Shown piece after piece: positions 1 through 31,283 of a stretch of 64,000 bases of DNA. Position numbers and translations under genes: made by a program. Origin of the DNA: a virus; IMG/VR virus record IMGVR_UViG_3300001533_002564, positions 1 to 64,000 of that record; one strand, given 5' to 3'. A model generated the notes under the pieces. It saw nothing but the letters and a program-made list of their open reading frames with translations. It was not told the origin of the DNA and made no database searches. The first letter of the stretch is position 1, and each line of letters starts with the position of its first letter.

Positions 1-71
1 CAAATCGCTGCAACGAAATAACTGTTTATAGCATTGTGCGAGAAACTTGTTGGATTGCAGTCCAACTCGTT

Positions 72-146
72 TGCGGAAGATGAAGGATTTGAACCCCCGA
101 CCTAATGGTTAACAGCCACTTGCTCTACCAACTGAGCTATCGGTGC
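72..146 (-). pseudogene. Chimeric/degenerate tRNA-Asn(GTT)
   Basis: Normal D arm, anticodon loop CTGTTAA and T arm. The 5' acceptor strand GCACCGA does not pair with the 3' strand ATCTTCC-G, which resembles a tRNA-Ser 3' end. Confidence 0.65.
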
Positions 147-156
147 ATAAAAAAAT

Positions 157-312
157 GGATTCTGGTGTAAGCCTTTTACTTACGACCCCCGAAAATATTT
201 CAAAATTCATAAATGTCTCTGAGAATGAGATGTGAGGTAGTGCGATTTTATCCGTCACTACTATGCCATTCCAACTGAACATTAGGGCAGTGCATTATCC
301 AAACCAGAACCC
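157..312 (-). ncRNA. Putative structured ncRNA (rod-like, possibly 6S-like)
   Basis: Terminal stem GGTTCTGGT...ACCAGAATCC followed by a T-run, nested internal stems (GCCCT/GGGGT, GTAGTG/CACTAC), no ORF. Confidence 0.35.
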
Positions 313-388
313 CATTCTAATATAGATTACTAGTATAAATATATTAGAATGATATGTAAATGAATCACTAGTACTTATTCATTTACTT

Positions 389-473
389 TGCGGAGAATAA
401 AGGAATCGAACCCTCGCCCCGAAGGACGGCACGGATTTCAAGTCCGCTTATCCACCATTGGATGCTACTCTCC
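389..473 (-). tRNA. tRNA-Ser(TGA)
   Basis: GGAGAGT/ATTCTCC-G acceptor, GCGGA-CTTGAAA-TCCGT anticodon arm, long variable arm, TTCGATT T loop. Confidence 0.9.
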
Positions 474-561
474 AGTGTCACTATGGAGAGGGTTTCACTC
501 CCAATTTCATATGTAGTGACATGTATATCATATGAACCCGAACCATTATTTATCGGCATTG

Positions 562-641
562 TGGTTGGGATGATGGGAATTGAACCCACATGTAACCAAT
601 TACTCTTTCTACACGTTATCAGCGTGAGGAGATACATCCCA
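562..641 (-). tRNA. Non-canonical tRNA-Ile(GAT)-like gene (no standard D arm)
   Basis: TGGGATG/CATCCCA-A-CCA acceptor, CACG-CTGATAA-CGTG anticodon hairpin, T arm; a GTAA-TTGG-TTAC hairpin lies 3' of the anticodon arm. Confidence 0.6.
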
Positions 642-1205
642 ATGTTCTTCATAATGTAATTCTCTATGACAATTTGAACATAATAAATCACATTTATCTA
701 ATTCAATCATAATCTTTAACCAACTCAAATTTTGATATTTTGAAACACTAAATTCTTTTTCATTTGGGTCTCGATGGTGAAAATCTAATGCTGCGATACA
801 TTTATTGTAACCACATTTCATACATTTACCTCCTAAATATTCAACACTCATTTCTTTTAATTTTTGTCGTCGGGATTTTACTCTTTCATAATTTCTTTTT
901 CGCCTTTCAATTTCATTTAACACAATTCTTTTATTTTCAGTATTTGCAATCACTGTTGTTCTTGACACATTAAATTTTTCTGCTGTTTCGAGAATAGTAT
1001 GTTTCTTATAATATTCATTTAATTCAATAATCTCTTTTTCATTTAATATTTTTCTACCATCAATTGGTTCATTTAATCCAGCACTAATGCAATGATATGA
1101 AACAGTAGGTTTTGATATACTTAATTGTTTACTTATTTCATTATAACTTTTCCCTAAAAGTCTTAATCTTATTACTTTATCTTTTGTTTTCATACTTTCG
1201 ACCAT
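609..1205 (-). CDS. HNH homing endonuclease with N-terminal HTH
   Basis: CMKCGY...LDFHHRDP...LLCSNCHRELH; stop overlaps the tRNA-Ile-like gene. Confidence 0.85.
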   Translation of the reverse strand: MVESMKTKDKVIRLRLLGKSYNEISKQLSISKPTVSYHCISAGLNEPIDGRKILNEKEIIELNEYYKKHTILETAEKFNVSRTTVIANTENKRIVLNEIERRKRNYERVKSRRQKLKEMSVEYLGGKCMKCGYNKCIAALDFHHRDPNEKEFSVSKYQNLSWLKIMIELDKCDLLCSNCHRELHYEEHWDVSPHADNV

Positions 1206-1296
1206 ATTATTATCTTATTATTTATAATAAATATTCGAAAGTTAGAAAATATTATTAATATTTGTCGCAAAAATAGTAAATATTTGAGACAAATTG

Positions 1297-1371
1297 AGCA
1301 CGTAGAGGGATTCGAACCCCCGATTGTACGCTTTTGCAGAGCGTTGCCTTTGACCACTCGACCATACGTGC
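1297..1371 (-). tRNA. tRNA-Cys(GCA)
   Basis: Canonical cloverleaf, ACGCT-CTGCAAA-AGCGT. Confidence 0.93.
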
Positions 1372-1448
1372 ATATTTGTAAAACTTTAGTCAATCCATAG
1401 ATTGTGCAGTAATCACCACGTGCAGGTAGTTTTACCTGATTACCTAAA

Positions 1449-1469
1449 CCAACATGTCAAAGAACTATA
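1449..1469 (-). promoter_or_regulatory. boxA-like antitermination element
   Basis: TATAGTTCTTTGACATGTTGG, identical 21-mer at 26817-26837; resembles rRNA-operon boxA. Confidence 0.65.
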
Positions 1470-1481
1470 ATAATTATTCAT

Positions 1482-1514
1482 AAAAAAACCCGAAACTTTT
1501 TAGGTTTCGGGTTT
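1482..1514 (-). terminator. Attenuator terminator 1
   Basis: AAACCCGAAAC / GTTTCGGGTTT stem plus U-tract. Confidence 0.85.
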
Positions 1515-1537
1515 GTGTTTTTATTGTGGTATTTTAT

Positions 1538-1666
1538 TTATATTCTAATATCCATTAAACCTTCACCCGAATCCATATTTCTGCCAAAATTTGAACAGAA
1601 TATACCATTCCCGTTACGACTAATAGTCGTTGTCGAAATAATAATATTTGTAATTCGTGTTTTCAT
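1538..1666 (-). CDS. Leader peptide 1, MKTRITNIIISTTTISRNGNGIFCSNFGRNMDSGEGLMDIRI (42 aa)
   Basis: Hand-translated; lies between promoter and terminator; contains TTCGGGT (1565-1571), complementary to the terminator 5' arm. Confidence 0.75.
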   Translation of the reverse strand: MKTRITNIIISTTTISRNGNGIFCSNFGRNMDSGEGLMDIRI

Positions 1667-1710
1667 TTTTATATGTTTATTAATTTAATTGTAAATATCT
1701 TTTATCTAAA

Positions 1711-1737
1711 TACGAGACAAAGATATAAAATGTTACA
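1711..1737 (-). promoter_or_regulatory. Composite promoter: TGTAAC-N17-CGTA with nested Bacteroidota -7 TATCTTTG
   Basis: Near-identical copy at 27079-27105. Confidence 0.65.
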
Positions 1738-1755
1738 ATATAAACAAATTATTTT

Positions 1756-2037
1756 TTATTTTTTTACTAATAAAATATCTTGTTTTTTTATAATCTCTAG
1801 ATTTTCAGGAGTATATGATATTAAATTAAATTTTAATTTTGTTGTATCTGATTGATGTTTTATTTCAAAATTACCATTAAAATCAGAATAAATGGTATCG
1901 CAATCGGAAATTATTCTTACACCAGCTAATTCTTCTCTGGTGTTTTTATCTAATATTTTACCACTAATTATATTTTTATTTGAAATTGTTGGATTTATAA
2001 ATATTAATAATAAATAAACTAATAAAATTTTTAACAT
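1756..2037 (-). CDS. Secreted carboxypeptidase-regulatory-like domain protein
   Basis: Signal peptide plus ISGKILDKNTREELAGVRI...SDFNGNFEI...ISY, typical of Bacteroidota CarboxypepD_reg domains. Confidence 0.7.
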   Translation of the reverse strand: MLKILLVYLLLIFINPTISNKNIISGKILDKNTREELAGVRIISDCDTIYSDFNGNFEIKHQSDTTKLKFNLISYTPENLEIIKKQDILLVKK

Positions 2038-2181
2038 AATCTTTTTTACATAATTACTGTTAAATGATGATATGTATATTATGTAAATATTATATATATG
2101 TTATTATTTTATGTTGTTTGTATTTACCATTTAAATGAATTATATATTCAACATTTTCCTTAAGATACGTTTATTATTTAA

Positions 2182-2745
2182 GTTGTAATTACCTTTCAAA
2201 TGAAGACCATACACAACAAATATGATAATGCCGAGGATATTGGCAGGGTTGTAATTACCTTTCAAATGAAGACCATACACAACTCCTTGTATAAAATTTA
2301 TACTCATATCATCGTTGTAATTACCTTTCAAATGAAGACCATACACAACTGCATACCATATTTATCTGATATACCTGTAGTTGTAATTACCTTTCAAATG
2401 AAGACCATACACAACTTTAATAAAGAATATAGTTTCATTTGGACTGTTGTAATTACCTTTCAAATGAAAACCATACACAACGTTGAGAGATGATATTATT
2501 TCAATTATCAAGTTGTAATTACCTTTCAAATGAAGACCATACACAACTTAGTAAGAAAGGTTTTAGCATTAATATCGGTTGTAATTACCTTTCAAATGAA
2601 GACCATACACAACAAGGTTTGTGAATAGTGGTTATTTCATCTAGTTGTAATTACCTTTCAAATGAAGACCATACACAACAAACTAATGCCAAATATATTA
2701 CTTGACCTTGTTGTAATTACCTTTCAAATGAAGACCATACACAAC
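2182..2745 (-). CRISPR. CRISPR array, 9 x 36-bp repeats and 8 x 30-bp spacers
   Basis: Repeat (minus) GTTGTGTATGGTCTTCATTTGAAAGGTAATTACAAC, starting on + at 2182, 2248, 2314, 2380, 2446 (1 SNP), 2512, 2578, 2644, 2710. Orientation inferred from boxA and the adjacent gene. Confidence 0.97.
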
Positions 2746-2940
2746 CTATATCGTATAATAATCTATTAATCATGTATTTCCTTTTATTTTTATTAAAAAA
2801 ATTTGAAAGATTCAATCCTATTATCGATGTTTCAGTTCAGATTTTAAAACCTAATTGGAATTAAGTCTGCTTCAGCATCTAAGAATTTTATTTTTTTAAA
2901 TCTCGGATGTTACATCACCCACATGATTTTATTTTAAATA

Positions 2941-2953
2941 TTTTCAAAGAACT
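2941..2953 (-). promoter_or_regulatory. boxA-like element upstream of the CRISPR array
   Basis: AGTTCTTTGAAAA, same core as the tRNA-operon copies. Confidence 0.5.
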
Positions 2954-3013
2954 TTTTATTTTAAATAATATTTTCAAATATAAACTAAATAATTTTAATT
3001 ATCAAATAAATTA

Positions 3014-4324
3014 TCATTTATTTTCAAAATATTTTTCTTTAATATTAATTGCTGCATTTAAATCAGCGTTCATTGTATGACCACATATAACACAAATAAA
3101 TTTTGATTGTGTTTGTCTATTTAATTTATTAGTATGACCACATTTTGAACATTTTTGTGATGTATGTTTAGGGTTAACAGTTACAACATTTTTACCGACA
3201 TATTCTGCTTTATATTGCATTTTAGTCCTCAATGAATATAAACCAACATCACTAAGAACCCGATTTAAATTACTTTTATTATTTGATTTACCTTTTCCAC
3301 TTCTTTTCATCATACCTTTTAAATTCAAATCTTCAAGAATATAAGTATCTACATCTTCTAATTCAATTAATGATTTTGAGATACAATGCTGTATATAATC
3401 ACGTTTTTCAGTTATTTTAAAATAAAGATTATTTATTTTTTTCTTAATTCTTTTATATGATGTAGTTTCCCAGAAATTAATGTCGGTTTTATTTTTTTTA
3501 TGATAATCTCTTTTTCTATTTAATATTTTTGATAATCGGTGTAATTCAGATTTATATTGTTTTAATAATGATATGGAATTTTTATAAATATCAATATTAA
3601 AATGTAATTCATCTGATGTTGTAATTGGTCTATGAACACCGAAATCAATACCAACACTAGTTTTTTTATCTATTGGTTTTTTTGTTTCAATAATTAATTT
3701 ATTTGGGTCATTTACATCACATTGTAATGATATAAAATATTTATCATTTTTTCTAGAAATCGTATATGAATTAATTTTAATAAATTTATTATTATCCCAA
3801 TTTTCAGAAAAAAAATGATTATGACATGATATTTTAATTTTTTTTATTTTAGGTATATCAATTAATCCAAATTTATTATTCAATAATTTTAAATTAAATG
3901 TTTTAGGTTTATTTTCATTATATTGTATTTGTCCTGTAAATGAATGTTTTGATTTTTGATTTTTAAATTTAGGAAATCCACTTCCCATTTTTTTTATATT
4001 AGCAAACGCTTTTTCAATAGCTTTTAAACTATATGTTTTACTTGTTGAGTCAATATTTTTTAAAAACCAAAATTCATCTGTATTTCCCATTTGAGTTAAA
4101 ATTTTACTCATTTCATATCTATTAAAATACAGGTTATTATCTTTCATATATTTATTACGTTCTTTTTTATCAACAATACCTATTTCAGTCATTTTATCTG
4201 AAATATCAATTTGTTGTCTTAAGCAATAATTATAAATAAATCTTGAAGTTCTAAATGAATCATCAAATGATTTAATTTGTTCGGGTGTTGGGTATATTCT
4301 AAACTTAAATGCTTTAGATATCAT
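3014..4324 (-). CDS. tnpB: TnpB/Cas12f-like RNA-guided nuclease (436 aa)
   Basis: AFKFRIYPT N-terminus, RuvC-I VGIDFG, RuvC-II LEDL, zinc ribbon CSKC/CVIC, RuvC-III NADLNAA; no tnpA nearby. Confidence 0.9.
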   Translation of the reverse strand: MISKAFKFRIYPTPEQIKSFDDSFRTSRFIYNYCLRQQIDISDKMTEIGIVDKKERNKYMKDNNLYFNRYEMSKILTQMGNTDEFWFLKNIDSTSKTYSLKAIEKAFANIKKMGSGFPKFKNQKSKHSFTGQIQYNENKPKTFNLKLLNNKFGLIDIPKIKKIKISCHNHFFSENWDNNKFIKINSYTISRKNDKYFISLQCDVNDPNKLIIETKKPIDKKTSVGIDFGVHRPITTSDELHFNIDIYKNSISLLKQYKSELHRLSKILNRKRDYHKKNKTDINFWETTSYKRIKKKINNLYFKITEKRDYIQHCISKSLIELEDVDTYILEDLNLKGMMKRSGKGKSNNKSNLNRVLSDVGLYSLRTKMQYKAEYVGKNVVTVNPKHTSQKCSKCGHTNKLNRQTQSKFICVICGHTMNADLNAAINIKEKYFENK

Positions 4325-4344
4325 ATGATTTTTTATTGAAGTAA

Positions 4345-4376
4345 AATAAAACGCATCGATTTCGATGCGTTTTATT
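4345..4376. terminator. Perfect hairpin (terminator or IS200/605-type end)
   Basis: AATAAAACGCATCGA-TT-TCGATGCGTTTTATT. Confidence 0.55.
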
Positions 4377-4381
4377 ATTAT

Positions 4382-6652
4382 TTAGATTTTTTCTTCTTTT
4401 TCGGCTAAATTAAAAGTAAAGTCTAAGTCTTTACCATCGAAATTTACAGATAAAGTATTTTCATCAAAACTCTTGAATTCAGTAAACCATTTTTTACTAA
4501 GAATCAACGAGAATTTAATTTCAGCAATTTCTTGCAATACTTTTCTCCTTTGTTTATTAAGGATTTTTGATTTAGTTTCAAGATATGTTTTTAAAACATT
4601 CTTTTGTTGTTCTTCGCTAAGTGATTTATACATATCAGAATCTAATTGAGAAAGATATTTCTTAATTGCATCTGCCATAACAAATTCATTAAGTTTTAAT
4701 GCAGCACCAGACTCAATTTTCTTAACAACGTCTTCAACTTTTGGAAGACTGGATAATCCTTTAATTTTTGTTTCAAGAACAACTGACATATAAAAATCTG
4801 TTGCTTCTGCGCTTGTAACTTTAGGTGAGAATCCATTGTAATCGGTAATTCCAATCTCTTTAAGCCAATCTGCTGCATCTTGTCCAACCAATTTAACAAA
4901 CGAATCACTTGTTTTTGGAAATAATGATTTCTTGTAGTAATCATAAACTTTCTTAGTACCTTGTAACTTCTTGAGTTCCCATTGTTGTTTAGCAAGTTGC
5001 ATTGCAGAAATACTTTTTACCATACTTTTATTAATAATTGGAATTGAAGTCAAGTCAATAACAATTTTTGTATCTTCACTTGGTGGTACTGGTACTGAAC
5101 TTCTCCATAAATCATATTTAATACCATTATTAAATAAATGTGCAACTAATTCATCGGAATAACTTACTGGAAGTTTTTCAATGTTTACAATACCATCTTT
5201 TATAATTGTAAAAGTATTATATTTAAAAGATGCAACATTATCAATACCGAATTTATTTTCTGGTAGAATCGCCTGACCTTCAATATAAATTCTTACACTA
5301 AGATTTGCTCTACTTTCATTCCATACTAAATCAGTTAATGGATAACCTCTATTGGGGTTGGTATTAATAAATTCAACATCGACTTTCTTTTCAGCAAGTT
5401 CGGCAGTTATTTTACTTAATTCTTCAACATTTTTTGCTTCACTAAGTCTTTTTTTATCGGCTTCAGTAATTGTTGACCCAACAATAACTTTTTTTCTACC
5501 TATTCTATTGTAATTAAATTCTTCATGATTTGGATAGAATAAACAGTTTTCAATATTACCTAAATCTTCAATAAGATTCATTAGACAATAAGCATCATCA
5601 GGCACTGGTTGAATGGTTGTTTGACCTTCAGGAAATCTTTTTGCTGTGTCTTCAACACATTCTTTAATTGCTGTTTTAAATGCATTTAGTTTTTGTTTAC
5701 CAAAAGCATTAACAAGCATTTTGTAATGATATTGATCACCTAATGCATAAAATATTTTTTCGGCATCTTCATTTAATAATTTATCTGAAAGAACGTAGAT
5801 TGCTGCATAAAGAGCACGTATAACACTATTAGTAAATTCAATAGTAATGCCAATTGCATTAAATGAAAAGAAATGTATTTCTTTAACATCAGAACCAACC
5901 ATTATTTTACCATCAGTAATATTATACAATAATACTGAACCATCACTCACACTAAATGCGAAATCATATAAATAACTATCGTTAATTTCAACAACATTTT
6001 TCTTTCCACCACGAGCACTATTTGATATTTTGGCATCGAACATTGGTTCGAAATCATCGAAACCATTACAACTAATTTTTTCACCACCAATAATACTTGC
6101 CATTTCAGTTAATCTACGTGAGTCAGCATAATAACCATATTCAACAAATGTTGAAGATGATATGTCATTCTCCATTCCTTTAAGTGTTGTAATGACTTCA
6201 TTCCAAGGACAGTCATTATTATAACCATCGGTAAGGAAAATCATTGAAAATACTGAGTCTGGTCTGTTATTTTGGATTCTTTTAATTAATCCATCGACTA
6301 ATTGGAGTGGTTTTAAGAATGCAGTTAATCCAACAGGACGAAGCCATTTATCAATAGCATCATTTAAATCGCTAAGTGTTTTTAAGGATTTAACTTCAAC
6401 TTCTTCTTTAAGAATTCCAGCATCTCTACTACCAGAAAACCATACTATAGAAATAGTATCACCTTCCATCATTAAGTTGGAAAGTTTGTTTTTTAATTGT
6501 GTTCGGATTAAAGGAAGTTCATAATACATTGAACCAGATACGTCAACTACGAAGATGTGATTTGTTTTTTTTGTAACCTCTACTGTTACATCGCTATTTA
6601 CTTCTTGAGTAGTGAGAAAATAGTTTTCACTAAATTTTACATTTGTTTTCAT
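4382..6652 (-). CDS. vWA (MIDAS) domain protein
   Basis: FVVDVSGSM ... IFLTDG. Confidence 0.8.
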   Translation of the reverse strand: MKTNVKFSENYFLTTQEVNSDVTVEVTKKTNHIFVVDVSGSMYYELPLIRTQLKNKLSNLMMEGDTISIVWFSGSRDAGILKEEVEVKSLKTLSDLNDAIDKWLRPVGLTAFLKPLQLVDGLIKRIQNNRPDSVFSMIFLTDGYNNDCPWNEVITTLKGMENDISSSTFVEYGYYADSRRLTEMASIIGGEKISCNGFDDFEPMFDAKISNSARGGKKNVVEINDSYLYDFAFSVSDGSVLLYNITDGKIMVGSDVKEIHFFSFNAIGITIEFTNSVIRALYAAIYVLSDKLLNEDAEKIFYALGDQYHYKMLVNAFGKQKLNAFKTAIKECVEDTAKRFPEGQTTIQPVPDDAYCLMNLIEDLGNIENCLFYPNHEEFNYNRIGRKKVIVGSTITEADKKRLSEAKNVEELSKITAELAEKKVDVEFINTNPNRGYPLTDLVWNESRANLSVRIYIEGQAILPENKFGIDNVASFKYNTFTIIKDGIVNIEKLPVSYSDELVAHLFNNGIKYDLWRSSVPVPPSEDTKIVIDLTSIPIINKSMVKSISAMQLAKQQWELKKLQGTKKVYDYYKKSLFPKTSDSFVKLVGQDAADWLKEIGITDYNGFSPKVTSAEATDFYMSVVLETKIKGLSSLPKVEDVVKKIESGAALKLNEFVMADAIKKYLSQLDSDMYKSLSEEQQKNVLKTYLETKSKILNKQRRKVLQEIAEIKFSLILSKKWFTEFKSFDENTLSVNFDGKDLDFTFNLAEKEEKI

Positions 6653-6729
6653 ACAATAATTTATTATTTACAGTTATTTATTTTTCAATTACTAATTAAA
6701 TTATACGAATATAATTTTAATTTGTTACA

Positions 6730-6918
6730 TTATTTCAGTTTTTTTACAATACGTTCATGGTTTTTCAACCAATTTTCAATATATGTTCTGTCATTACTTA
6801 CAAACCCATCATAACAATCAGCTTGGAAATCTCTCATAAGCAGTTCTAAATCACTAAGGGTTAAATAATATCCATCAACATATTCTTCATTAATAAGTTT
6901 ACTTTCCAAGACTATCAT
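6730..6918 (-). CDS. Hypothetical protein
   Basis: ORF preceded by AGTATTTA motif. Confidence 0.5.
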   Translation of the reverse strand: MIVLESKLINEEYVDGYYLTLSDLELLMRDFQADCYDGFVSNDRTYIENWLKNHERIVKKLK

Positions 6919-7031
6919 AATAAATGAAATTAGAAAGCAAATCTATGTATTTTATTTTTAATATCAAAGAACTTTTTATTAAATACTTTAAATAAAAAAA
7001 TGGTCTCGTGTTTAGAGACCATTTAATTATA

Positions 7032-10000
7032 TTATCCACATTTACTATTTCCACATCCCATACAAATAAGACATCCTTCTTTGTATTGTAGGTCATTACT
7101 GCCACATACAGGACAAGTGCCTTTACCTTTTTCACCGTCTTTAATATATCTTTTAATGACACGAGTAACACCATTTTTCCAAGTATTAATATAATCTTCT
7201 TTAAAATTTAATGAATCAATTAATTCAAAAACATATACTAATGGCATTTTATGTCTTAATACCCCAGAAATAAATTTAGCATAATTCCAGAATTCGGGAT
7301 TAAATGCGTGGTTTAGTCCAGTAAAAATATGTTTATCTCCTTGTGAATCAATATATTCAATATCATATCGTTTTCTTTTTACTTTAACTATTTTACCATC
7401 AATAAGTTCATCTATTTCAATAATATTTTTTACAACTTCACATTCAGTAATTAATGGAGGTAGTGAACTTAAACCATTTTCAAGACGACCAGTAAAAATT
7501 TCGTATGGATGACCATCTTTTAATCCAACAACAGCAATCCATTTTTCAAGTTTATTTTGAAAACGATGTATTTCTGCTTTTAATCTTTTTCCTCTTTTGG
7601 GTGCATGAACTTCTTCAATTGCCACTTCTTTTTTCTCATTATTAGATATTAGAACACCACTTCTACTACCTTCACGATAAACAGTCATTCCTTTACAACC
7701 AGCACTCCATCCAGTTTCATATACTTGACGAACTAAATCTTCAGTTGCTTCTTCGGGTAAATTAACTGTCACACTAATACTATGGTCAACATGTTTTTGT
7801 ATTCTACCTTGCATTTCAACTTTCTTAACCCAATCAACATCATTTGAAGTAGCTTTATAATAAGGTGATTTTTTTACTATTTCATCAACTTGTTCTTCTG
7901 TCATTGTTTTAACAATATCAACATCATAATCATTTGCTTTTAACCATGTTTTAAAGTTGTTATGGAAGACAAGATATTCTTTCCATGCAATTCCTTCTTC
8001 ATCAACAAAATCTATTTGAATATCTTTTTCTTGTGGATTAATTTTTCTTCTTCTTTTATAAACAGGTAAGAAAACAGGTTCAATTCCTGATGTTGTCTGT
8101 GTCATTAAACTTGCAGTACCTGTAGGTGCTATTGTTAATAATGCAATATTTCTACGACCATATTTAACCATGTCTGCATATAGTTCAGGATTTGCTTCTT
8201 TTATACGTAAAATAAATGGATTATTCTTTTCTCTTTTAGCGTCATAAATTGGAAATGCTCCACGTTCTTTTGCTAATATAACCGATGATTTATATGCATT
8301 TAATTTTAAATTTTCATGTACTTTTTCACTAAAATCATTTACACTATCAGTCCCATATGTAAGACTTAATGCTGCAAGCATGTCACCTTCAGCAGTAACA
8401 CCTAAACCAGTTCTTCTGCCTTCAATTGCTTTTTCTCTGATTTTAGTCCATAAATTAATTTCATATAATTTAATGAATTCATCTTCAGGGTCTAATTTAA
8501 TTTTAGCTAGAATATTATCAATTTTTTCTAATTCTAAATCAATAATATCATCCATATAACGCATAGCAATAATTACATCATTTTTAAATAAATCCCAATC
8601 AAAATAAGAATCAGAAGTAAATGGATTAACAACATATCCGTACAAATTAAGTGCAAGTAATCTACAACTATCATATGGACATAAAGGTATTTCACCACAA
8701 TTGTGCACACTAATTCCATTGCAATCAAATTCATGTGCAATATCAACATTACAATCATAAACATCTTCAACACCTACTAATTTTATTGATTTAATTGAAT
8801 CAGTGAAATATTCTTTATATAAACCACGCTTTAAATTATTTAATACATTATCTAATTTTGTTTGTTTATTAACGTCCTTAAAACCAATACGTTTATTAAA
8901 AACCAATAAATTTTCTTTAGATATTACTAACTCATGTTGTGCTTTTACATTATATTCTTTTTTACCACCATTACCATCAGGTAACATTTTTTTACTGTCT
9001 AATCTCCTATTTTTAAATATTGATGAGACGATACCTAACCTTAGTAACATTCTTTGAATAACTTCCAGATTATTAAGATTAGATGAAGATAGTCTAACAT
9101 TAATACCCTTTTTACTATTATTTAATACTGTACCATCAGCATCTAATATTCCTGAAATAAAACCACGATAAAAATCAGAACTTTGTGATTCAATTGCATA
9201 ACCTAAATTCTTACCGTCAAACAATCCTAAATCATTTGCTATTCTACCTAATGGATTTGATTTAACAGTAATTATTTCATTATTATCGTCACCACTACCA
9301 AGACTATCGTTATAATTCAATGATGTTTTAATTAAATCAACAGCAATTTTTTTCATTGTTGCTCGATTTTCACCCCAATATCTTAAATATGCAGTTTCAT
9401 TTACTAGAGAACCATCACCAACTAATGAACCAATTAACCAACCAATTTTATCATCGTAATTACTATCCCATGAAGATTTTAAATTTTGGTTTTTATTATA
9501 ATTTAAATTAAGTACGTCACCTTCAATCAAATCACCTAACTCAACCCATTCATATGATTTTTTTCCTCGATTTTGTTTAATAACCCTTTTAAACTTATGA
9601 TTATCAGTAGCTTTTATCTTTAAACCACGATTAGTTTCAACTTCATAAACCTTTTTATCTCCAGTATAGAAAAAACCGCCTTTTGATAAATATTGCTCGT
9701 TATCAACCAGTGCAGTAAAATCTTTACCAATTAATTCATTAACTTGTTTCGGTCCTTCATTTGTCATCACCCAAGAATCACTTGTAACACAAGGATTAGT
9801 ACTTGTTGTTTTAAATCCTAAGTCAGCATAACAATCAGGAATACTTTCAGAGATTACTTTATCCCAGAAAAGAATACCGGGTTCGCCTGATTTCCATGCA
9901 TTATGTATTATTTTTTTCCAAAGTTTTGTTGGGTCAATTTCTTTTATGATTTTAGGATTATCGCTATCAATTGGATATTTTTGTTCAAAAGCATACTCAT

Positions 10001-10688
10001 ATTTTGCAGCTTTCATAAATTCATCAGTTAATCTTACTGAAACGTTAGCACCAGTAACTTTACCTTCACTCATTTTTGCATCAATAAAATCTTCAGCATC
10101 AGGATGATTAATTGAAACACTTAACATTAATGCGCCTCTTCGACCATCTTGTGCTACTTCTTTTGTACTATTTGAATATCTTTCCATAAAAGGAACAATT
10201 CCAGTACTTGTTATCGCACTATTTTTTACTGGACTTCCTTTAGGACGAATAAATGACAGGTCTTGTCCTACTCCACCTCGTCTTTTTTGAAGTTGAACCA
10301 TATCTTGATCGAGTTTCATAATTCCACCATAACTATCACTGTCTTTATTATTTCCAATTACAAAACAATTAGATAGTGATATTATTTGAAAATTATTACC
10401 AATACCAGACATCGAACCACCTTGTGGAACAATTCTTTTAAAATTTTTAATTGTTTTATAAATTTCTTTTGCAGATAATGCATTAGGATATTTAGCTTCG
10501 ATTCTCGCAAATTCTTTTGCTAATCTCCTATGCATATTATCTGGGGATAATTCATAATAATTATTATCGTCTTTTAAACAATATTTTTTTATCCAGACAT
10601 CTGTAGCTAATTGGTCGTTATTAAAATAAGTTAATGTTGCTTCTTCAACTTGTTCTTTTGTATAAGTTTTTTTGGTTTTTTCTATCAT
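7032..10688 (-). CDS. nrdJ: Class II (B12-dependent) ribonucleotide reductase with intein
   Basis: SLSNCFV, RRGA, TNPC/GEIPL, APTGT, KGMTVYR, C-terminal zinc ribbon. Confidence 0.93.
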   Translation of the reverse strand: MIEKTKKTYTKEQVEEATLTYFNNDQLATDVWIKKYCLKDDNNYYELSPDNMHRRLAKEFARIEAKYPNALSAKEIYKTIKNFKRIVPQGGSMSGIGNNFQIISLSNCFVIGNNKDSDSYGGIMKLDQDMVQLQKRRGGVGQDLSFIRPKGSPVKNSAITSTGIVPFMERYSNSTKEVAQDGRRGALMLSVSINHPDAEDFIDAKMSEGKVTGANVSVRLTDEFMKAAKYEYAFEQKYPIDSDNPKIIKEIDPTKLWKKIIHNAWKSGEPGILFWDKVISESIPDCYADLGFKTTSTNPCVTSDSWVMTNEGPKQVNELIGKDFTALVDNEQYLSKGGFFYTGDKKVYEVETNRGLKIKATDNHKFKRVIKQNRGKKSYEWVELGDLIEGDVLNLNYNKNQNLKSSWDSNYDDKIGWLIGSLVGDGSLVNETAYLRYWGENRATMKKIAVDLIKTSLNYNDSLGSGDDNNEIITVKSNPLGRIANDLGLFDGKNLGYAIESQSSDFYRGFISGILDADGTVLNNSKKGINVRLSSSNLNNLEVIQRMLLRLGIVSSIFKNRRLDSKKMLPDGNGGKKEYNVKAQHELVISKENLLVFNKRIGFKDVNKQTKLDNVLNNLKRGLYKEYFTDSIKSIKLVGVEDVYDCNVDIAHEFDCNGISVHNCGEIPLCPYDSCRLLALNLYGYVVNPFTSDSYFDWDLFKNDVIIAMRYMDDIIDLELEKIDNILAKIKLDPEDEFIKLYEINLWTKIREKAIEGRRTGLGVTAEGDMLAALSLTYGTDSVNDFSEKVHENLKLNAYKSSVILAKERGAFPIYDAKREKNNPFILRIKEANPELYADMVKYGRRNIALLTIAPTGTASLMTQTTSGIEPVFLPVYKRRRKINPQEKDIQIDFVDEEGIAWKEYLVFHNNFKTWLKANDYDVDIVKTMTEEQVDEIVKKSPYYKATSNDVDWVKKVEMQGRIQKHVDHSISVTVNLPEEATEDLVRQVYETGWSAGCKGMTVYREGSRSGVLISNNEKKEVAIEEVHAPKRGKRLKAEIHRFQNKLEKWIAVVGLKDGHPYEIFTGRLENGLSSLPPLITECEVVKNIIEIDELIDGKIVKVKRKRYDIEYIDSQGDKHIFTGLNHAFNPEFWNYAKFISGVLRHKMPLVYVFELIDSLNFKEDYINTWKNGVTRVIKRYIKDGEKGKGTCPVCGSNDLQYKEGCLICMGCGNSKCG
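8700..9791 (-). mobile_element. LAGLIDADG intein in NrdJ (364 aa) at the active-site NPC
   Basis: TNP|CVTSDSW...ATDNH...GSLVGDG...GILDADG...SVHN|CGEIPL. Confidence 0.93.
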
Positions 10689-30979: not shown

Positions 30980-31015
30980 AAATTTAATATAAATACTGTG
31001 GGTTTGAGAAAAATG

Positions 31016-31088
31016 TCGAGAATGTCAGATTCGAACTGCAACTTATCATCCCAAATGATATATGATACCTGATTTCACCACATTCTCG
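31016..31088 (-). tRNA. tRNA-Pro(TGG)
   Basis: TATCA-TTTGGGA-TGATA. Confidence 0.8.
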
Positions 31089-31118
31089 TAATAATATTTC
31101 AAAGAACTTAAGTTTTTA

Positions 31119-31192: not shown

Positions 31193-31208
31193 ATATAATA
31201 TTTTATTG

Positions 31209-31283
31209 TCTGAGTGGCAAGATTCGAACTTGCGAACACGTGCTTCCAAGGCACGCCCATATAGCCGTCTGTGGAACACCCAG
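31209..31283 (-). tRNA. tRNA-Pro(TGG)
   Basis: CGTGC-CTTGGAA-GCACG. Confidence 0.88.

Follow-up and report, generated by a model that had tools for sequence, protein, structure and literature searches.

Intermediates between TnpB and Cas12 show the transposon origin of CRISPR effectors, and no smaller programmable nucleases are known. CRISPR arrays lying downstream of TnpB-like genes have been described, as have 40 V-U branches (Altae-Tran et al., PNAS 2023, PMC10691335). TranC, presented as a transposon-CRISPR intermediate (Jin et al., Cell 2025, doi 10.1016/j.cell.2025.09.004, as cited in PMC13565253), includes a phage-borne case, CauTranC9 (bioRxiv 10.64898/2026.03.27.714800). Cas12n (type V-N, formerly V-U4), found in Actinobacteria, is a monomeric, TnpB-like effector (540 aa in PDB 9J09) with a 170-nt tracrRNA plus crRNA and A-rich PAMs; it ends in a disordered C-terminal tail, the coding region of which overlaps the tracrRNA (PMC12216341). 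The published signature of type VI-B arrays is a 36-nt repeat with GUUG...CAAC ends and 30-nt spacers (bioRxiv 10.1101/092577).

Here we describe a locus in a 64,000-nt stretch of viral DNA (IMG/VR record IMGVR_UViG_3300001533_002564, positions 1 to 64,000; hereafter the window), which comes from a 104-kb fragment, approximately 32% complete, of a huge phage. With a probability of roughly 75%, the locus is a phage-encoded, TnpB-derived type V-like CRISPR system of the TranC / type V-U class. It shares with that class a TnpB-like nuclease of TnpB size with intact RuvC, an array immediately downstream at the omega-RNA position, a predicted tracrRNA at the old position of the omega-RNA scaffold, the lack of cas1, cas2 and cas4, and a short array with a repeat in the 32-38-nt class; the likeness to the published TranC clades and the V-U6 to V-U45 branches is one of description, not of sequence comparison. 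In contrast to those systems, its repeat belongs to the class that is paired with Cas13b in Bacteroidota hosts, and its tracr-like RNA has a boxA-like motif at its head. Our literature search found neither feature described for TranC or V-U systems.

Anatomy of the locus

The module lies on the minus strand in the order TnpB-like gene, structured non-coding RNA and CRISPR array (Table 1). All elements listed in a preliminary description of this DNA were found where it had placed them, including the 436-aa gene with three RuvC acidic motifs, the non-coding stretch (given there as about 270 nt and measured here at 268 nt) and the nine near-perfect repeats on the same strand as the gene.

Table 1. 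Features in and around the TnpB-array module (positions in the window)
Feature	Positions	Strand	Remarks
VWA-domain gene	4382-6652	minus	upstream neighbour
Palindromic GC-containing hairpin	4345-4376		T/A runs on both sides; from terminator scan
TnpB-like gene	3014-4324	minus	intact 436-aa ORF
Two overlapping sigma-70-like promoter matches	2977-3027	minus	10/12 each; at ORF end, upstream of boxA-like motif
Non-coding gap, 268 nt	2746-3013	minus	between TnpB-like gene and array
boxA-like motif GTTCTTTGAAA	2942-2952	minus	5' end of conserved non-coding RNA
Hairpin P1, GGGUG-AUGUAA-CAUCC	2905-2920	minus	5 bp; covariation across loci
Long-range stems, 6 + 8 pairs	2814-2887	minus	close scaffold just upstream of anti-repeat
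Anti-repeat AUCUUUCAAAU	2801-2811	minus	pairs with repeat positions 17-27 (AUUUGAAAGGU)
U7 run	2795-2801	minus	directly after anti-repeat
AT-rich leader segment	2746-2794	minus	from tracr-like RNA to first repeat
CRISPR array	2182-2745	minus	nine 36-nt repeats separated by eight 30-nt spacers
Ninth spacer (29 nt) and degenerate terminal repeat	2117-2181	minus

The hairpin between the VWA-domain gene and the start of the TnpB-like gene was the single hit of a terminator scan in which 0.2 were expected, and from its sequence it is likely to be a terminator that insulates the module. A weak Rfam sRNA-like match overlaps the same region (4346-4395). The sigma-70-like matches at the end of the ORF may possibly, though weakly, indicate the start of a tracr/pre-crRNA transcript; promoter-like sites are no more frequent in this AT-rich DNA than chance predicts (26, with 26.6 expected).

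The TnpB-like protein

The protein contains the Pfam domains HTH_OrfB_IS605, OrfB_IS605 and Cas12f1-like_TNB, and its gene is present as a single copy in the record. The RuvC triad (D227, E331 and D421) and the four cysteines of the zinc finger (CCCC) are kept across 30 relatives. When a profile of the clade was compared with PDB sequences, the best match was 9yyg, followed by RdCas12n (9J09; E 5e-42 over residues 116-427) and, behind it, by ISDra2 TnpB (E 2e-39), which aligned over its full length. The AlphaFold model (pLDDT 89.7) ends in a confident helix at residues 420-435, and its top Foldseek structures were the TnpBs of ISFba1 and ISDra2 (TM 0.80-0.81, normalised to target). Cas12f structures align only to the C-terminal RuvC/TNB part of the protein. 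In the tree, the protein falls in a clade separate from the Cas12f-like phage proteins G002 and L034, with splits supported at 100% and 99% SH-aLRT. A more distant relative, L012, lies outside the clade in the best tree; its joint grouping with the clade is left unrejected by the AU test (p = 0.165).

The protein is thus nearest to true TnpBs (ISDra2 and ISFba1) and to Cas12n, and it is outside the Cas12f clade. The preliminary description had proposed, as one of two alternatives, a phage Cas12f-like system that had borrowed a host-type repeat, by which host Cas1-Cas2 might add spacers. Its core, a TnpB-like nuclease coupled to an array, is supported; membership of the Cas12f clade, that is type V-F, is contradicted by the tree and by the PDB profile comparison, with matches to Cas12f confined to the C-terminal part. 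The locus nevertheless resembles Cas12f systems (CnCas12f1 8HR5, AsCas12f 8J12 and OsCas12f 9NZQ) in having a miniature effector, a putative tracrRNA, a downstream array and no adaptation genes, and in the phage loci G002 and L034, which encode true Cas12f-like proteins, the repeats are of the same class (AAUUUGAAAGGUA...) and a U-run again comes after a similar anti-repeat.

With Cas12n the locus has in common the strong RdCas12n profile match and a long tracr-like RNA, but its ORF is smaller, ends right after the zinc-finger domain without a C-terminal tail, and is followed by an RNA that would begin after the stop codon. The TnpBs of IS200/IS605 and IS607 elements (ISDra2, 8H1J/8EXA; ISFba1, 8IAZ) are the best structural matches, with the same domain order and an RNA encoded at the 3' end of the gene. 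In contrast to these, the window has a multi-spacer array addressed through an anti-repeat instead of one flank-derived guide. Membership in the mobile IS200/IS605-IS607 (OMEGA) group was rejected, there being no Y1 transposase in the record, one gene copy, and an array in place of a single guide.

Conservation and movement of the module

The same gene-gap-array module was found in five loci: the window and the phage or metagenome loci L139, L060, L059 and L012, the proteins of which are 57%, 58%, 41% and 30% identical, respectively, to that of the window. In the window, L139, L060 and L059, the loci with available DNA from a tight clade of approximately 30 protein clusters (38-80% identity; each cluster on 1-4 contigs), the TnpB gene is followed by a gap of 220-270 nt and then by an array on the same strand. 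L012 has the same layout with a gap of 111 nt. A downstream array accompanies 14 of the 165 distinct TnpB proteins taken from the loci retrieved, the clade and the Cas12f-like group among them.

Apart from the module, L059 and L012 have no gene in common with the window. The module lies between RNR and VWA in the complete 322-kb relative G003, and in the window it comes after both, in the order RNR, VWA, module. These arrangements support the view that the module moves as a unit. A downstream array was present in 5 of 5 loci with available DNA, two of them with unrelated flanks. The module is conserved down to about 30-40% protein identity, and such systems have been published as TranC / V-U; the word "nascent", applied to the locus in the preliminary description, is therefore an overstatement.

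The gap RNA and its anti-repeat

The boxA-like motif, which had been placed at 2941-2953 and which we locate at 2952-2942, occurs twice in the 64 kb of the window, compared with 0.09 copies expected; the second copy of GTTCTTTGAAA lies between two tRNA-Pro genes. It takes the form GTTCTTTG in the window, L139, L060 and L059, and it is identical at 10 of 11 positions to a natural CRISPR-leader boxA, GTTCTTTAAAA, of L. pneumophila Lens (PMC7862264).

Downstream of this motif the RNA is structured. In hairpin P1, two pairs are altered on both sides across the loci (U-A/C-G and G-C/A-U). By RNAalifold and pair counts, 96% of the cells in a set of 19 pairs are paired, compared with 28-40% when the strands are slid; 10 of the 19 scaffold pairs show compensatory changes, and the observed score was matched by none of 500 shuffles, the 19-pair structure being derived from the alignment used to score it, which leans towards the model. 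A covariance model (R1) built without L012 recovered the L012 gap at E 0.021, and a search with R1 of approximately 1.15 Mb of TnpB loci gave nothing beyond the clade loci and L012. A single-sequence fold of the tracr region is no better than shuffles (z = -0.02). Rfam contains no known family matching the gap, and no RAGATH-18 or other omega-RNA family matches positions 1-10000. Searches with the conserved tracr motif matched the L139 contig alone and gave nothing in the prokaryote genomes.

The anti-repeat and the U-run after it, claimed in the preliminary description, are present, and the anti-repeat co-varies with the repeat in the five loci. At the homologous position in these loci, 87% of the cells of the anti-repeat:repeat helix are paired, compared with 31-47% for a slid partner; four pairs have changes on both sides, and none of 500 shuffles reaches the observed score. 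This co-variation rests on five loci, in an alignment (A5) anchored by hand at a homologous TGAAT motif, a choice that leans towards the model. Taken singly, the anti-repeat of the window is no better than chance, and in whole-gap RNAduplex energies the cognate pairs are no better than shuffles or non-cognate repeats, the DNA being AT-rich; positional co-variation was used as the test in place of these energies. A U-run comes after the anti-repeat in the window, L060 and L059; in L139 and L012 it is broken. In the window it presumably marks the 3' end of the tracrRNA, or else a pause site overridden by boxA.

Two further candidates were rejected. Matches of a second anti-repeat, upstream of the boxA-like motif, to the last 9 nt of the repeat were suggestive but not positionally homologous in the alignment, and a "fossil" cis repeat in the leader of the window (2746-2794) was not significant (p = 0.42); the leader of L139, unlike that of the window, does hold a repeat remnant. 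Judged from its sequence, the gap fits a structured RNA with a split guide, in which a tracrRNA and a crRNA would be joined through the repeat:anti-repeat duplex.

The array and its type VI-B-like repeat

The array has a period of 66 nt; eight of the nine repeats are identical, and the other has one mismatch. A decayed tenth repeat (2117-2152, 26/35 identical) lies at the distal end, so that the leader must be next to the TnpB gene and the sense strand must be the minus strand; such a distal decayed repeat is seen in the window, L139 and L060. The sense repeat begins with GUUGUG and ends with UUACAAC, and in repeat length, both ends and 30-nt spacers the array agrees with the type VI-B signature.

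The repeat is identical at 24-30 of 36 positions to those of arrays with a 66-nt period in genome contigs, nearly all from Bacteroidota. Of six large ORFs adjoining such arrays that were tested, four are Cas13b (NF038190, E 1e-127 to 1e-256). Against Cas13b-adjacent repeats, from Sphingobacterium hungaricum, Chryseobacterium sp., and Parabacteroides and Dysgonomonadaceae MAGs, the identity is 25-30/36, which bears out the type VI-B-like character given to the repeats in the preliminary description; it is 25/36 against an array of Segatella buccae ATCC 33574, the neighbouring ORFs of which lay outside the Cas13b test. The 5' half of the repeat, left out of that search, fits the host repeat profile as well (+10.3 bits; about 0.001 of shuffles). 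Exact and near-exact searches with the full repeat found no match in the viral or genome collections.

Across the clade, the repeat is conserved over the 12 nt at its 3' end and drifts in its 5' half, as is expected if a type V crRNA keeps only the spacer-proximal part. The VI-B-like 5' half is kept only in the window and L012; the repeats of L139, L060 and L059 have neither this half nor the GUUG end, and the module is retained.

Missing genes and spacer targets

As the preliminary description had it for tnpA and cas1, the 104-kb record contains no tnpA (Y1 transposase), Cas1 or Cas13b. Cas13b and Cas1 were also absent from three related phage records, which brings the records searched to four (G000-G003, two of them complete), and the positive control, G004, worked. 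Because these phages have no Cas1, any gain of spacers would need host enzymes.

Spacer targets, from which a PAM or TAM might be read, were sought in phage and host collections, and no protospacer was found. The whole array gave only chance-level matches against 50,697 phage records, the spacers gave only repeat-to-repeat matches against four related phage records, and no spacer matches the 104-kb record of the phage itself. No match in the viral collection was found for the 24 nt at the 5' end of spacers 1, 2 or 8. Against 401 Bacteroidota genomes there was one exact match of 23 nt, in G064, to CAAC plus the first 19 nt of spacer 4; we rejected it as a target, since it is likely to be a chance match and a PAM formed by the repeat end would make the array target itself. 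With no protospacer for any spacer, neither the PAM nor DNA as opposed to RNA targeting can be read from the array.

Proposed mechanism

In our model, a single minus-strand unit would encode the nuclease and, beginning near its stop codon, a structured RNA of about 160-210 nt that ends in the anti-repeat and the U-run. This RNA would be the tracrRNA, formerly an omega-RNA scaffold, and a pre-crRNA with nine spacers would come next. The anti-repeat would pair with each repeat in turn, and the duplex, together with the conserved repeat tail (GGUAAnnACAAC), would restore a guide resembling omega-RNA, in which the spacer forms the 3' end. Nuclease and guide would then cut complementary DNA beside a 5' TAM/PAM, the targets being probably competing phages or other mobile elements of the same host, a putative member of the Bacteroidota. 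The boxA-like motif may recruit host Nus factors, allowing transcription to read through the untranslated array.

Alternative explanations

Arrays without cas genes are known in phages, and the repeat resembles those of Cas13b. Both points suit the second alternative of the preliminary description, that the array only hijacks host Cas13b and the TnpB gene is an insertion-sequence remnant with its own omega-RNA ending before the array. We regard this as highly improbable and disfavour it as the main function. The linkage of TnpB, RNA and array is kept in five loci with unrelated flanks, the anti-repeat changes along with the repeat, and the VI-B features decay in the relatives while the spacer-adjacent 3' tail stays fixed; moreover, there is no tnpA and the TnpB gene is single copy. 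Type VI-B arrays share the 36-nt repeat, 30-nt spacers and terminal motifs of the window, but here the array goes together with a TnpB-like gene and with an anti-repeat that co-varies, and no Cas13b is encoded in the record or in two complete related phage genomes. The coupling of a TnpB-like effector to the array through a tracrRNA is supported instead by the linkage of gene, RNA and array in five loci, by the co-variation of the anti-repeat, and by the movement of the module as one piece. A double use of the array seems rather improbable too: the phage nuclease would read it through the tracrRNA, and it would also be compatible with host VI-B / II-C machinery, with host Cas13b loading the same crRNAs (in spacer-then-repeat register), host Cas1-Cas2 adding spacers, or both. 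The VI-B signature (bioRxiv 10.1101/092577), the 24-30/36 identity to Bacteroidota arrays with Cas13b as four of six tested neighbours, the good Cas13b-type match over the whole repeat (+10.3 bits for the 5' half) and the need for host enzymes in the absence of a phage Cas1 all speak for it. However, the module persists in L139, L060 and L059, where both the VI-B-like 5' half and the GUUG end are gone, so it does not require VI-B compatibility.

The system may also be guided by the array without providing DNA-cutting immunity, as a regulator of phage or host genes, a homing or maintenance device, or a decaying relic. Although no protospacers were found in the phage or host collections searched, and TnpB relatives have been domesticated as repressors (TldR, PMC10705468; Cas12m, PMC10442227), this is very doubtful: the RuvC triad and the zinc finger are preserved intact here and throughout 30 clade members, the identity of eight of nine repeats argues for a maintained array, and no spacer matches the phage's own 104-kb record. 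As to the origin of the array within a type V-like system, it is unlikely, in our estimation, that the TnpB lineage captured, or keeps exchanging with, a host-type VI-B / II-C array and evolved a fitting anti-repeat, as opposed to having made an array from its own omega-RNA.

Conclusion

This kind of system, a transposon-to-CRISPR intermediate, is already published, and the Cas13b-like repeat is the unusual point; the value of the locus is in corroboration and extra comparative detail, not in a first discovery. It adds a well-delimited phage clade of approximately 30 protein clusters, in which, as in the distant L012, the protein travels with a helper RNA and an array in each inspected locus (the window, L139, L060 and L059). 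The co-varying anti-repeat fixes the register of the tracr:crRNA duplex and so gives a basis for designing a single-guide RNA. The homology of the repeat to the class that the likely hosts use with Cas13b bears on the question of whether type V arrays arise by duplication of omega-RNA or by capture of existing arrays. If capture were true, the phage array would be compatible with the spacer-acquisition enzymes of the host and possibly with host Cas13b, and one array would serve both DNA-cutting type V-like and RNA-cutting type VI effectors. The locus would then be a natural case of the "insertion next to a pre-existing array" route, which was left open in PMC10691335.

The candidate effector protein

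The coordinates of the gene, array, gap and motifs in the preliminary description all hold.

Features of the locus and its surroundings in the window
Feature	Position	Strand	Remarks
Decayed tenth repeat	2117–2152	minus (sense)	26/35 identical
CRISPR array	2182–2745	minus (sense)	nine 36-nt repeats, 66-nt period; 8/9 identical
Two long-range stems	2814–2887	minus	RNAalifold, four sequences
5-bp hairpin	2905–2920	minus	RNAalifold, four sequences
boxA-like motif GTTCTTTGAAA	2952–2942	minus	in window, L139, L060 and L059 as GTTCTTTG
TnpB-like gene	3014–4324	minus	436 aa, three Pfam domains of TnpB
Ribonucleotide reductase large subunit	7032–10688	minus	1218 aa, intein with LAGLIDADG domain

The RuvC acidic triad was correctly described as intact: D227, E331 and D421, like a CCCC zinc finger, align with those of relatives, and across 30 clade members they vary little or not at all. 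This clade is sharply bounded in protein searches, with clusters P0002–P0031 at 38–80% identity to the window protein, followed by a fall to ~30%. Its profile matches ISDra2 TnpB over nearly the full length in a PDB profile search (E 2e-39) and also matches RdCas12n (E 5e-42); the match to Cas12f is confined to the C-terminal part. The closest folds to the AlphaFold model (pLDDT 89.7) are ISFba1 and ISDra2 TnpB (TM 0.80–0.81), with Cas12f next (~0.65). The clade comes out monophyletic in the tree (99% SH-aLRT) and is distinct from Cas12f-like phage proteins and ordinary TnpBs. The TnpB-like gene is single copy, and the record has no tnpA, the latter as previously stated.

Linkage of gene, gap and array

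A same-strand array lies 220–270 nt downstream of the gene in every clade locus whose DNA was obtained: the window, L139 (from the complete 322-kb phage G003), L060 and L059, the latter three encoding proteins 57, 58 and 41% identical to that of the window. Absence of arrays from close homologues, named beforehand as an argument against coupling, is thus not what was found. Searching the viral collection with the 3′ part of the repeat yielded two more phage contigs of the same layout. One, L012, encodes a 415-aa TnpB (30% identical to the window protein) and, across a 111-nt gap, has five repeats that match the window's at 31/36 positions; a decayed repeat and a terminator close the array. The L012 protein forms a long branch outside the clade, but joining the two is not rejected by an AU test (p = 0.165). 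The other, the complete circular 363-kb phage G002, encodes a 501-aa protein and has ~17 repeats after a gap of 250 nt; PDB matches (E 6e-36 to 8HR5) identify this protein as a Cas12f. Among 165 distinct TnpB proteins in the loci retrieved, just 14 are followed by an array; the clade and the Cas12f-like group both belong to these 14.

The window has no other gene in common with L059 or L012. In G003 the module has the reductase on one side and a VWA-domain gene on the other; in the window it comes after the VWA gene. Because of these unrelated flanks and this shifted position, gene, gap and array are seen to move as one unit.

Small same-strand arrays also lie 140–350 nt 3′ of TnpB-like genes unrelated to the window clade, in viral and metagenome contigs (L179, L185, L203 and L106, with 380-aa proteins; L212/L213; L099). 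Several origins of TnpB–array coupling are thus represented in these collections.

Array and leader RNA

The nine near-perfect repeats reported earlier were recovered. Decay at the TnpB-distal end makes the 268-nt gap (2746–3013) the leader and the minus strand the sense strand of the array, as it is of the gene. The 3′ repeat tail GGUAAnnACAAC, adjoining the spacer, is kept by the whole clade, as expected for a type V crRNA.

In a comparison of the window with L139, the gap sequence is more conserved than the protein. In the predicted structure 96% of cells are paired, compared with 28–40% for slid partners; changes on both sides are seen in 10 of the 19 pairs, and 0/500 shuffles attain the observed values. 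These statistics are drawn from four sequences only, and structure and pair counts come from the same alignment. A covariance model of the four, which left out L012, matches just those four and the L012 gap (E 0.021) in ~1.15 Mb of TnpB loci. By these computed measures the gap is a structured RNA.

The anti-repeat proposed at 2811–2801, an 11-nt match, is no better than chance taken alone, but the homologous segments of five loci, placed between a conserved TGAAT and a U-run, co-vary with positions 17–27 of the repeat at each locus, for example CUUUC:GAAAG in the window, CUUAC:GUAAG in L139, UCUAC:GUAGG in L060 and CACUC:GAAUG in L059. In this helix 87% of cells are paired, compared with 31–47% when slid; four pairs show double changes, and none of 500 shuffles scores as high. 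A co-varying anti-repeat of this kind is a tracrRNA signature.

The L139 leader (L139:4498–4541; IMGVR_UViG_3300005613_000002) contains a 5′-truncated, decayed repeat copy (positions 14–36, 18/23 identical, 0/500 shuffles), directly after the anti-repeat, its end separated from the first full repeat by exactly 30 nt. The copy may be the fossil remains of an omega-RNA that was still undivided and had its own guide; a first repeat that was merely truncated would also explain it.

The boxA-like motif is one base off the natural boxA of the Legionella pneumophila Lens CRISPR leader (PMC7862264), and could plausibly allow Nus-dependent read-through of the array. The sole other window copy of GTTCTTTGAAA (31097–31107, minus) lies between tRNA-Pro genes (31015–31088 and 31208–31283), which fits boxA use in phage non-coding RNA operons. 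In L029–L031 (IMGVR_UViG_3300025117_000031 and two others), where a Cas12f-like phage gene is accompanied by an array of GC-rich 28-nt repeats, AAGTTCTTTGAAAAAC occurs shortly after the gene's stop codon; therefore the motif is not restricted to AT-rich Bacteroidota-type loci.

Repeat class and spacers

The preliminary description had also considered a stand-alone array that hijacks host Cas13b beside an unrelated TnpB, and the type VI-B likeness of the repeat is confirmed. The pattern TTTGAAAGGTAANNACAAC matched 115 genome contigs, the multi-copy arrays of 66-nt period being nearly all from Bacteroidota; these host repeats are 24–30/36 identical to the window repeat, and Cas13b accounts for four of the six neighbouring large ORFs tested (E 1e-127 to 1e-256). 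The 5′ 17 nt of the window repeat, unconstrained by the search pattern, fits the host profile with a score of +10.3 bits (~0.001 of shuffles); the fit is weaker for L012 and absent for L139, L060 and L059. Neither Cas13b nor Cas1 is encoded in the four phage records searched. The resemblance is real for the window locus, yet dispensable for the module, because the L139, L060 and L059 repeats lack the fit and the whole clade keeps just the 3′ tail.

In a Bacteroidota MAG, a 1011-aa ORF (L256:2–3034; JBGZFC010000076.1) without NCBIfam match ends at a Cas13b-class array whose repeat is 27/36 identical to the window's; the ORF could encode either a divergent Cas13b or some other effector.

The proposed spacer search for a common flanking motif yielded no protospacer in phage records, related phages or Bacteroidota genomes. 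One Bacteroidota genome (L335:1584–1606; G064:C5:10083–10105) matches 23 nt exactly, namely the last four repeat bases CAAC plus the initial 19 nt of spacer 4, at a point where two minus-strand ORFs meet; this is probably due to chance, since a search of the 401 genomes should yield ~0.1 matches of this kind.

The phage record

The record (104 kb, ~32% complete by CheckV), whose first 64 kb make up the window, is a huge-phage fragment; the window encodes 20 tRNAs, a tmRNA and an intein-containing ribonucleotide reductase. The G003 reductase (L139:161–2713) apparently lacks the intein, because it has 850 aa and aligns with the window gene in two blocks (67–72% identical). Three extra tRNA-like elements near the left end (minus; 392–473, 565–641 and 82–139), detected with Rfam and uncalled by ARAGORN, are possibly phage tRNAs of a degenerate or unusual kind; one scores best as tRNA-Sec, below threshold.

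Relation to known systems

The feature is real, and a TnpB-like nuclease coupled to an array is supported by conserved linkage, structured RNA and co-variation; the suggested Cas12f likeness does not extend to membership of the Cas12f clade, given the match confined to the C-terminal part and the separate grouping in the tree. The closest characterised effector is Cas12n (PMC12216341). Arrays downstream of TnpB-like genes have been described, with 40 V-U branches lacking adaptation genes and the array origin left open (PMC10691335). TranC is defined by an omega-RNA split into tracrRNA and crRNA (Jin et al. 2025, as cited in PMC13565253), and phage-borne examples exist (bioRxiv 10.64898/2026.03.27.714800). 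The system belongs to this already published kind (TranC/V-U), to which the window locus adds a member. The interesting point that remains is the repeat class common to the module and type VI-B.
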